DNA of 28,739 nt from a virus (taxonomy: Duplodnaviria > Heunggongvirae > Uroviricota > Caudoviricetes), in IMG/VR virus record IMGVR_UViG_2698536397_000009. One strand, given 5' to 3'. The position numbers are program-made. Shown one piece after another: positions 1 through 3,000 of this stretch (position 1 is the stretch's first letter; each line of letters starts with the position of its first letter).

Positions 1-3000
1 AGTCTCCAGGATTCCCGGGGCGATTCATATCGACCATGAGTTGGCAGTAGCTGGGCAAATTATTCCTGCTACAGATGAGATCACAATGAAATATCCAATC
101 TCGGAGGCGTTTTTTCGCGATATGTTCATCAATCATCCCTTCATCCCGTTTGGGCATGAAGAGTTTTTCATCAAGGGTATGGTTTGCGGTTTCAATGGAG
201 ATTTTATGACGGCATGCCACGTGTTGATTCCCCAGCTCGAAAATAGTCTGAGATATGTGGCTAAAATTAAAGGTGAGGAACCATCGCAGCTTCACGGGGA
301 CGGTTCGCAAGAGCGAAATGGACTCAAGGGATTACTAGATAATCCACTGATTATTGAAGCTTTCGGCGTAGACATAATTGGCAATCTTCAGGCCTTACTG
401 GTAGATAAAATCTATGGTGATTTACGAAATCAACTAGCTCACGGATATGTGCCTGCCGGTTACTACAATCAACCTCCCTGCATTTTTGCATGGTGGCTTG
501 TATTGCACATTCTAATGAACCCTACGGCGAGATACTGGCAAGCCACTTATGGCCAAGAGAGTGAGGCTCAGACTTAAAGTGAATAAGTTTACGAAGTTGG
601 CACTTCCGGATGCATGTCCATATGAGTTGAGGCGATTTGGTTAATAAGGTTGAGTGCTGCTGAAATTATTCGATGTCCGCTTTTGGCACAAAGCGGACAA
701 CCACGCCAGATCTACCCTGTGCCATGAAAAATGAGAATGTCAATTCACTCCTGAACTAATGCTTTTTAATCTAGTAACGTCTAAAATACCTAACATTATC
801 CCTGATAAAATGCCAGTATGCGCTGCATAACTTCACTCATCCGGCACTCGCGACAGATTATGTTTAGGCGACTGTCGTAGCGACGTATTTCTCCATCAGG
901 TAACGACCAGATAACGTCCGGATCAACCACAGCTGTTTTCTTCACCTTTGCCCTCGAGAGTTTTTTGCGGGCGTTTTGCCAGTCCTTACGCGCCTGTTCA
1001 GACGGGAATAACCCGTAGCCGGAGTTGTATACATCGCCACTGGCTACCAGCTCTCTGGCAAGAACGCTCATCAGATATCTAGTCGCACCTGTTTTAGCTT
1101 CCAGTTGCCGTAACGTCTCACGACCGCTCTGGCGCACGAGTTCCACCACCTGCCCTTTAATTTTTTCCCGCTCTTCTTGTGTAAAAACTTTTGCCACAAG
1201 TCCCCCTTAAAATTACCTCATGACCTGAAATCAAAACTTATCCTCTGAAACCAGGCGGAATTTCTGTATCCGGTTCAGAAATATGATTAACACAACGCTG
1301 TACAGGTGAACGCCCCAGGCGGATGACCAGTTCGTCCCATTTTTCGCGGAGCTTTGACGGGCTCATGATGTTTTTTACCCAGAATGGATCCCGCTGTACC
1401 CGACCAAACATTTCACAAATTTGTCTGTGGCTTCTGCCATCCAGCATCCGCATTGTGCGCACATCATTGGCCCAGACAGTCCAGTTAGGCTCTTTTGGTC
1501 GCATGATCTCGCCATCATCACTGGCGGCCTGTTCGTAGAGACCCACGATCCGCCCCCATATCCACTGCGCACACGCCAGATCCTCCTGGCTACCCCACTG
1601 GCGTTTTTTCGCACTAAACACAACTGCGCCAGGGTGCCGGATTAAAAAATCCTGTTCAGCCGTCTGCGGGTCCGGTTGCGAAGCTTCCGGACGAAAAGTG
1701 TTTTTATTCTCTGTAGTAATCTCTGTTGTATTCTCTGTAGGATCATCGGGCCATTTTGACCCGATGACATTGGGTCGTTTTGAACCAATGGAGCGTTTCA
1801 TTTTGACCTCTTCCATCGTGTCATTTTGACCTGATGGAGCGGCGCATTTTGAACCGATGGATTCGCTCAATTTGCCATCATCTAAAAGCTCGCTCCCATA
1901 GTTAATCGTGTAGAAATTGGTCATATCGCGCTTTGATTTATTGAGCTTTTCACAACGCAAAAGCCCCAGCGTTTTCAGACTTGCAAACGCGCGCTTTAAC
2001 GTTGACTCTGACCAGAATGGGAACTGTTCCAACCATTGTTCCGTTGTGTTGTAAATCCAGCGAACACCATCACATTCCATGCCGGAATTGGTATCTCTCA
2101 ACCAATAATGCAACTGCTGCAACACAATGGCTTCATTTAAGCCAATCTTCATCGCAAGCTGTGTGTTTATAACCAGTGGGCGTTCAGCAAAAAGAAGGCT
2201 CATAATTCCATCCAGCTTTTTGTTGGTATTGCTGTCGATACGCAAGTTTGAAAGCAATTGCTTTTTCTATAAGTTCGTCAGTTTCACGATCCACTACGGC
2301 AGGATCAGCAAAAAGCAGTCCGGACTCCACCACATCGCCATATTCTTTGTTTAACCCGGCGATCATGTACGTGATGCTTTTTCCGTCACTAATTTCACGA
2401 TACAACCTGAAATCATTAATCCGGATAGCCTCCATAATTGCAGGCACTAGCGCCGTGAACTTTTCACGCTTATCCCTGGTGTCGATAGCCTTCCAGCGTT
2501 CGAATATCTTCACTCGATTAACGCCAAGCGCTCGCTGATCAACCGCGCCACCTTCATCTGTGACACGCTGAACATCGATGTTCGGGCGCTCTTTCAAAGC
2601 CCAGAATGCTTCAGTGATTAATATCGTCGCCTGCTCCTGTGTCATTCCTGGTCGACATATCCAGGCATCCAGAGCCTCACGAGCCTGTTCAGGAGTGATT
2701 TTCATTGTTCAACCGCCCCGCCCGCTTCGTCTTACGATATTCGTCATAAACCTTGGGATCATACAGAAGCTCCCCGCCAGATGCCTCCTGTAGACGCATC
2801 GCGCGACCTTCAGGAACCAGTATCCCCCAAGCAGCAACACTTGCCAGTCTCACTCCTGCGGCATTGGCAAGCTTTGTTTTGCTGCCAAAAAAAGTAATTG
2901 CGTCAACTTTAAGCATCAAAGCCCCCTCTTGTTAGACTTTTCTAACATTATTGTGCGCGGGATATCTAAGTCAAGAAAAATTAGAATTACCTAACTATGG

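Follow-up and report, generated by a model that had tools for sequence, protein, structure and literature searches.

The 3' remnant of an IS-split DUF7380–HEPN gene, a predicted phage-defence candidate of the PDC-S39 family, in a Qin-like prophage of Escherichia coli

Here, we analysed a 28,739-nt stretch of Caudoviricetes DNA (IMG/VR record IMGVR_UViG_2698536397_000009), hereafter the window, which opens on the 3' end of a gene encoding a DUF4209/HEPN domain, the C-terminal part of a 595-aa protein that PADLOC classifies as the phage-defence candidate PDC-S39. An earlier, sequence-only reading had described a plus-strand frame open from the window start to nt 577, convergent with minus-strand phage genes and containing the peptide LRNQLAHG, in which it saw the R-x4-H signature of HEPN RNases. 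This description was borne out, as plus-strand frame 2 has no stop from nt 2 to a TAA at 575-577 (191 sense codons), the remaining two plus-strand frames are riddled with stops, LRNQLAHG is coded by nt 422-445 (R at 425-427, H at 440-442), and a minus-strand DUF977 gene (796-1197) faces the frame. The same reading counted about 190 visible C-terminal residues, which agrees with the number of open codons, but the first nine of these (VSRIPGAIH, nt 1-27) are the terminus of an insertion sequence (IS) read through and not gene sequence, the gene remnant itself covering 28-577. The features on which the argument below relies are the following, where ORF stands for open reading frame:

1-27, no strand: end of a 1,310-bp IS3-family element, on the side upstream of its transposase, which is directed away from the window
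28-30, no strand: right-hand copy of the 3-bp target-site duplication TAT, from comparison with the intact allele
28-577, plus: 3' gene remnant, codons 413-595 (183 codons) and stop, of a 595-aa DUF7380 + TPR-like + DUF4209/HEPN gene (PADLOC PDC-S39; intact protein WP_021514655.1), with the whole HEPN domain encoded
86-577, plus: 163-aa ORF from an internal ATG, the RefSeq "DUF4209 domain-containing protein" WP_000876897.1 of IS-split alleles, corresponding to the coding sequence 12086-12577 of one IS-bearing locus (L001)
239-253, plus: E-x3-R motif ENSLR (E484 and R488 of the full protein), predicted second HEPN active-site element, from family conservation
425-442, plus: predicted HEPN Rx4-6H catalytic motif RNQLAH, of the form R-N-x3-H (R546 and H551), from family conservation

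When nt 1-1300 of the window were compared by megablast with 5,426 complete E. coli genomes, three genomes (H1-H3) aligned from nt 1 and carried an annotated IS3-family transposase immediately upstream, while, among the matches listed, all others covering 98% of the query (H4-H20) started at nt 28. E. coli FHI_NMBU_11 shows 100% DNA identity to the window over nt 1-1300, and its features follow the order 426-aa DUF7380 protein, IS3-family transposase with a frameshift pseudoknot, 163-aa DUF4209 protein. Aligning the window with the IS-bearing and intact loci placed the point of divergence precisely at nt 27/28. The element measures 1,310 bp, with ends TGAACCGCCCCGG... and ...GGGGCGATTCA; these ends look like those of IS629/IS1203, a provisional name. 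In L001, TAT stands beside both of its ends (gcgTAT/TGAACC... and ...GATTCA/TATcgac, the slash marking the junction), where the intact allele has a single ATGCGTATCGAC, and the insertion site falls at codon 412/413 of the 595-codon gene (gene nt 1238). Because identity to intact alleles begins only at nt 28 and an IS terminus occupies nt 1-27, the truncation of the ORF is biological and not an effect of the window edge alone. This overturns the earlier assumption that the gene was merely cut by the limit of the stretch: the IS interrupts it 27 nt inside the window, so that no full-length protein is possible in this genome, and the copy analysed here does not form an uninterrupted coding sequence from start to stop. 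In addition, the window is 100% identical from 4000 to 28739 to strain JNEC-KY202, where the gene is split in the same way. The gene in this genome is thus very probably an inactivated pseudogene, whose N-terminal two-thirds are separated from the HEPN domain by the IS.

RefSeq treats the two halves of the split gene as separate proteins and not as a pseudogene, namely a 426-aa DUF7380 protein (L001 9477-10757) and the 163-aa DUF4209 protein. The 163-aa ORF at 86-577 is probably an artefact created when the split gene was annotated, and a consensus scan of the plus strand between the IS end and the ATG at nt 86 returned no promoter-like site. A second disruption was found in E. coli FDAARGOS_1290 (L013 4001-7226), where IS4 has entered the gene independently at about nt 1317, some 80 nt away from the site of the IS3-family element, both insertions being located immediately upstream of the HEPN domain; another genome keeps merely 88 bp of the gene. 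These two insertions near the HEPN domain could reflect recurrent loss of a costly gene, or coincidence: two events are compatible with a carriage cost and too few to argue for selection or for a non-random pattern.

The whole gene, of which the sequence-only reading saw just the end, could be recovered from the intact alleles, which encode a 595-aa protein (e.g. WP_021514655.1 in strain EC1722-1). This protein begins with DUF7380 (residues 4-166, E 2e-34), continues with a TPR-like helical repeat region, in agreement with the fusion to TPR-type repeats listed for DUF4209 by Anantharaman et al. (2013, Table 1), and ends with DUF4209 (residues 484-573). Searches with profile hidden Markov models (HMMs), which the earlier reading had put forward for HEPN and abortive-infection families, matched DUF4209 and PDC-S39. 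Indeed, the window fragment scored 36.4 bits against Pfam DUF4209 (gathering cut-off 22.3; profile positions 1-88 of 89) and reached an E-value of 1.3e-49 against PADLOC PDC-S39 (profile positions 417-584 of 595), while the intact protein matched PDC-S39 with an E-value of 1.7e-102 (profile positions 54-602 of 615). Two PHROGs families match as well, both of unknown function, and an NCBIfam scan of the fragment matched nothing. As regards its diversity, the family comprises 3,319 clusters at 50% identity with E <=1e-3, or 2,164 with E <=1e-10, in an exhaustive HMMER search, nearly all of them with a length of 580-630 aa and in colinear alignment with the query. A literature search returned no papers on DUF7380 and none joining ERMARD and HEPN. 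Within the N-terminal domain, residues R105, D108, W111, A124, Y128, and R151 are near-invariant (96-98% conserved in 201 members), and this cluster (105-151) could, judging from its conservation, be a candidate sensing or regulatory site.

Taken by itself, the R-x4-H of the window peptide is weak evidence because 18-22% of shuffles of this peptide carry one by chance, and it gains meaning through family conservation data only. In this regard, Anantharaman et al. (2013; PMC3710099) include DUF4209 (the C6orf70 family) in their list of new HEPN families and describe it with a conserved Rx4-6H, fusion to TPR, and restriction-modification-related operons. The HEPN features given in the same paper are a four-helix bundle, the Rx4-6H motif, an N, D, or H after its R, and an upstream acidic residue, usually in an Ex3[KR] in helix 2. 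Conservation was assessed in 37 homologues down to 23% identity and in 201 full-length HMMER members with a median identity of 26%. The only invariant columns among the 37 homologues are G384, Q482, E484, R488, R546, H551, and G552, and in the larger sample H551 is found in 201 of 201 members and R546, E484, and R488 each in 200 of 201. Together with G384, likewise found in 200/201, these four make up the five positions with the highest conservation in the whole protein, and the residue following R546 is N in 168 members, H in 29, and D in 2 (199 of 201). The four-helix up-and-down bundle core that defines HEPN domains, in which helices 2 and 3 are often separated by an insert, was also recovered. 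In the model of the fragment, ENSLR sits in a long helix (59-80) and RNQLAH in a short one (132-137), followed by the last long helix (149-181), a placement consistent with the one expected for a HEPN motif, namely the end of helix 3 ahead of helix 4, exposed to solvent and near the acidic residue. Searching the PDB by sequence with the family profile gave weak TPR matches only, none of them HEPN, and a Foldseek comparison of the full-length model with the BFVD viral structures gave nothing significant, the matches being generic TPR/SNAP-like ones with TM scores <0.3. The assignment of the fragment as HEPN is therefore owed to Pfam, the literature, and the fold search, the sequence search of the PDB being insufficient. 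On this basis, the domain is, from sequence and family conservation, a HEPN domain of the DUF4209/C6orf70 family, with a complete predicted active site (E484-x3-R488 and R546-N-x3-H551). The earlier identification of a HEPN domain is consequently upheld by the Pfam score, by the published family, and by the conservation of both Rx4H and Ex3R; the two outcomes that would have told against it, namely a full-length protein without a HEPN fold and an R and H varying among homologues, did not materialize, the fold being HEPN and the two residues essentially invariant.

The distribution of the family beyond E. coli Qin-like prophages points in the direction of defence. Distant members (about 23% identity, PDC-S39 E-values of 2e-67 to 8.5e-85) are found in P2-like phages at the gpA-gpQ hotspot, as in vB_EcoM-569R9 and P2-EC46 ORF612, and DUF4209 accounts for the 13th (193 occurrences) and the 55th (76 occurrences) commonest systems at this hotspot in Rousset et al. 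2022 (Table S5B). One homologue, in an Enterobacter kobei prophage, has the Q antiterminator on one side and the holin on the other. In a 7-Mb genome (L010 8001-10927), another homologue (P0067) overlaps by 4 nt the start of a DUF4238 gene, of a type shown to defend against T7 (Rousset et al. 2022); transposases border the pair, an arrangement suggestive of a small defence islet. In V. cholerae, the homologue belongs to a two-gene islet between tauE and carB, where it is followed by a 160-aa ORF (L005 9958-10440) that has no Pfam match and is not found next to the E. coli gene, and which is thus probably not an obligatory partner. No neighbour is shared across the five contexts compared (E. 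coli, P2-like phage, V. cholerae, Enterobacter, and the 7-Mb genome), which is in keeping with a single-gene system. DefensePredictor gives WP_021514655.1 itself log-odds of 4.3 and the label "Predicted novel defense gene" (PMC13092281). A defence role of the family is accordingly predicted, in a consistent manner, by PADLOC and DefensePredictor.

The locus is a Qin-like cryptic lambdoid prophage. Past the gene remnant, its immunity and early region reads as follows, with the features of its surroundings that bear on the gene:

674-699, no strand: hairpin with a 10-bp stem (GTCCGCTTTT-GGCACA-AAAGCGGAC) in the 218-nt convergent gap, RNAfold -14.7 kcal/mol
796-3404, no strand: Qin-like prophage immunity and early region, from RefSeq annotation of identical DNA and Pfam
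796-1197, minus: DUF977 (Pfam DUF977), convergent with the HEPN fragment
1238-2203, minus: O-like ORF of 321 aa (RefSeq)
2184-2705, minus: YdaT (Pfam YdaT_toxin)
2689-2916, minus: Cro/DicC (Pfam P22_Cro)
2997-3404, plus: DicA-like helix-turn-helix repressor, divergent (Pfam HTH_3)
4565-4616, plus: DicF antisense small RNA, upstream of dicB (Rfam RF00039, 72.5 bits)

In intact genomes, the gene is preceded by ydfT (antiterminator), ydfU, rem, and hokD; in the window, the YdaT, DicC, and DicA-like genes are followed by ydfA, DicF, dicB, ydfD, an exonuclease, xis, and int, and then the chromosomal rspB and rspA. The position of DicF upstream of dicB confirms the assignment of the prophage to the Qin/dicB type; DicF was the sole hit of an Rfam scan of nt 1-5300, with none in or beside the HEPN fragment. 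The neighbouring genes had been called a replication module, a label that finds soft support: of the two RefSeq records inspected in full, one names the 321-aa O-like ORF "phage replication protein O", as does one further listed record, while the others give "hypothetical protein", and the ORF has no Pfam match. The gene of interest, with hokD/rem on one side and the Cro-YdaT-O-like-DUF977 operon on the other, lies on the opposite strand from the two adjacent operons and has a GC content of 0.44 against 0.48-0.50 for its flanks. Of the 5,426 complete E. coli genomes, 152 have it, with an identity of >=99% in every case, and in about 147 it is intact, when the flanking Qin-type DNA has matches in 4,012 genomes. 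Its own orientation, low GC content, and patchy presence fit a cargo gene ("moron"). When the intact locus and the IS junction were scanned for consensus promoters and terminators, nothing on the relevant strand exceeded the expectation from shuffles. The hairpin at 674-699 has no T-tract on either side, was not called by the consensus terminator scan, and is not a canonical intrinsic terminator; it may nonetheless be a transcription stop. As for a small partner gene in the 218-nt downstream gap, this candidate was rejected, the ORFs there being of at most 31 aa and lacking any conservation argument.

Further along the window, two additional observations can be made. First, rspB (9559-10603) is split into two overlapping minus-strand ORFs, 9559-10011 and 9944-10603; its counterpart in FHI_NMBU_11, which is not identical to the window at that place, is a RefSeq "frameshifted" pseudogene adjoining the prophage integrase. 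Second, another prophage-like block spans approximately 19650-28739, after ynfF, the ynfG gene being cut to a short 4Fe-4S remnant in a related genome. This block comprises genes for an AntA/AntB antirepressor (20183-20815), TraR, DUF4752, ead/Ea22-like proteins, a Hok/Gef toxin, and YgiW, as well as a 1,308-aa ORF (24602-28528, minus strand) annotated in related genomes as an LPD5/LPD38 domain protein.

Overall, nt 28-577 of the window very probably represent the C-terminal third of a 595-aa single-gene defence candidate, PDC-S39, carried as a moron by a Qin-like prophage and split by an IS. With respect to PADLOC PDC-S39 itself, to both of whose HMMs the fragment and the intact protein match, no sequence difference sets the gene apart: it is a member, of about 600 aa, encoded by a single gene and lacking a conserved partner, of which the window copy is IS-disrupted. 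The P2-EC46 ORF612 type of DUF4209 cargo at the P2 gpA-gpQ hotspot belongs to the same family, with the same length and architecture and the same status of phage-borne accessory gene, but is only about 23% identical and is cos-proximal in P2-like phages, whereas the gene studied here resides in a lambdoid Qin-like prophage beside an early operon. The wider DUF4209/C6orf70 family (ERMARD; PF13910, renamed EMARD_N in newer Pfam) shares the Rx4H with N after R, the Ex3R, and the TPR-like fusion, and its bacterial members likewise occur in defence or restriction-modification contexts; eukaryotic C6orf70 is described as an endoplasmic-reticulum membrane protein with a transmembrane segment, when the bacterial protein instead adds DUF7380 and is prophage-borne. 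The toxins of the HepT/MntA type VII systems (PDB 7ae2 and 5yep) are of about 130-140 aa and neutralised by an adjacent MNT nucleotidyltransferase. A toxin of this toxin–antitoxin type was rejected for the present locus, as no MNT gene flanks it and the HEPN domain forms the C-terminus of a 595-aa protein. Closer in logic are the HEPN domain of AbiA, HEC-08 (DUF3644-HEPN), and DS-11 (CBS-HEPN), in which a regulatory or sensor domain is fused to a C- or N-terminal HEPN domain, and mutation of Rx4-6H abolishes the defence conferred by HEC-08 and DS-11. Their partner domains differ from those of the present candidate (DUF7380 and the TPR-like region), and beyond HEPN the sequences are unrelated.

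By analogy with HEC-08 and DS-11, in which a regulatory domain is combined with a HEPN domain whose Rx4-6H is needed, and with general HEPN biochemistry (PMC3710099), a mechanism can be proposed for the intact allele. The DUF7380/TPR-like part of the protein would keep the HEPN domain inactive and would also sense a phage component or another cue of infection; upon this cue, HEPN domains would pair and form a composite metal-independent RNase site, and the paired domains would cut cellular and/or phage RNA, resulting in abortive infection. We regard this succession of events, from auto-inhibition to abortive infection, as a plausible scheme that we slightly favour. It is more tentatively, and with a little less than even confidence, that we extend it to the proposal that intact WP_021514655.1, encoded for instance by ATCC 25922 and ECOR29, is a working single-protein abortive-infection system, in which the DUF7380/TPR-like part would sense the cue and the HEPN RNase would be released.

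Several points weigh against this interpretation and should be considered together. The window itself holds just 27 nt of the IS, and the remainder of the element, together with the 5' part of the gene, is reconstructed from three identical complete genomes. On the plus strand upstream of the intact gene, the scan found no consensus sigma-70 promoter. That R546 and H551 would be catalytic is suggested by the position of the motif and by conservation, and the RNase activity, dimerisation, trigger, and abortive infection that we propose are all transposed from other HEPN systems. As to the defence role, DUF4209 is not among the systems validated by Rousset et al. 2022 and is missing from the table of cloned units of DefensePredictor (PMC13092281), and the PDC set of PADLOC, obtained via guilt-by-embedding, is presented as "145 untested phage defence candidates" (Payne et al., bioRxiv 10.1101/2024.01.29.577857). 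In the literature searched, no published defence test of any PDC-S39 member was found, PDC-S39 otherwise appearing only in inventories of PADLOC output. The sequence-only reading's proposal of a defence-type moron thus stands in part: PDC-S39 membership, DefensePredictor, the relatives at the P2 hotspot, and the cargo traits of the gene speak for it, but the copy of this genome is IS-inactivated and no published defence activity was found.

Two alternative explanations concern the state of the gene in this genome. If the gene were intact and simply cut by the window edge, it would be a working defence gene, as the frame open to nt 2 and the roughly 147 of 152 E. coli carriers with an intact gene might lead one to think. 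This is very improbable, because nt 1-27 differ from the intact allele and are identical at every base to the IS3-family terminus, the TCA end and the TAT duplication being as expected, and because the split gene is present in the genome to which the other 24.7 kb are 100% identical. Conversely, the free HEPN fragment (163-182 aa) might still be expressed after the IS insertion, as an active or neo-functional product acting either as a deregulated toxin or in a two-piece system with the N-terminal ORF. The fragment does keep a complete HEPN domain, an in-frame ATG at nt 86, and a RefSeq coding sequence, and the IS3-family (gene nt 1238) and IS4 (about nt 1317) insertions both occurred just upstream of that domain. 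However, no promoter-like site leads from the IS end into the fragment, transcription of the transposase leads away from it, one would expect toxicity from a deregulated HEPN RNase, and two insertions are too few for a non-random pattern to be claimed, all of which makes a functional fragment highly unlikely.

The two other alternatives concern what the intact protein does. That its R-x4-H arose by chance in a protein which is no HEPN nuclease, for example a structural helical/TPR protein or a non-catalytic HEPN such as MtlR, could seem conceivable given the shuffles, but the conservation of R546 and H551 in all or all but one of 201 members leaves this reading, if anything, even less probable than the previous two. 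It could also be that the protein is an active HEPN RNase with no anti-phage role, such as a prophage-maintenance or addiction toxin, a stress-response enzyme, or an RNA-processing enzyme, as proposed for C6orf70/ERMARD. Such a role would agree with the lack of a defence phenotype in the literature, with the position of the gene next to hokD, in a cryptic prophage that has many toxin-type genes, with the V. cholerae copy lying in a small islet between housekeeping genes, and with the cost suggested by two independent IS knock-outs. Yet there is no conserved antitoxin-like partner, the family recurs in recognised anti-phage hotspots and beside a DUF4238 gene, and two independent defence predictors flag it, so that we hold a non-defence RNase to be unlikely. 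An IS-split member of the defence-candidate family PDC-S39 hence remains our preferred explanation of the window feature.

In itself, the gene of which this feature is a disrupted copy is not new: it has a RefSeq annotation, is covered by Pfam and PADLOC models, and is singled out by a defence predictor based on machine learning. The chief value of the present analysis is a correction of annotation, according to which the 163-aa DUF4209 and 426-aa DUF7380 proteins are the halves of one IS-split gene; tools of the PADLOC type may tally such a locus as a defence system though it is non-functional. PDC-S39 is a large family, with about 3,300 clusters at 50% identity, a uniform architecture, a near-invariant predicted HEPN site, and recurrent presence in phage cargo hotspots, and the intact alleles available in standard strains (ATCC 25922 and ECOR29) make it a readily accessible candidate for validation. 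If the intact protein were a working abortive-infection system, the two IS insertions just ahead of the HEPN domain would be a sign that selection acts against the gene as costly or auto-toxic, and characterisation of the bacterial protein would offer a first biochemical handle on the eukaryote-wide C6orf70/ERMARD family of HEPN domains.

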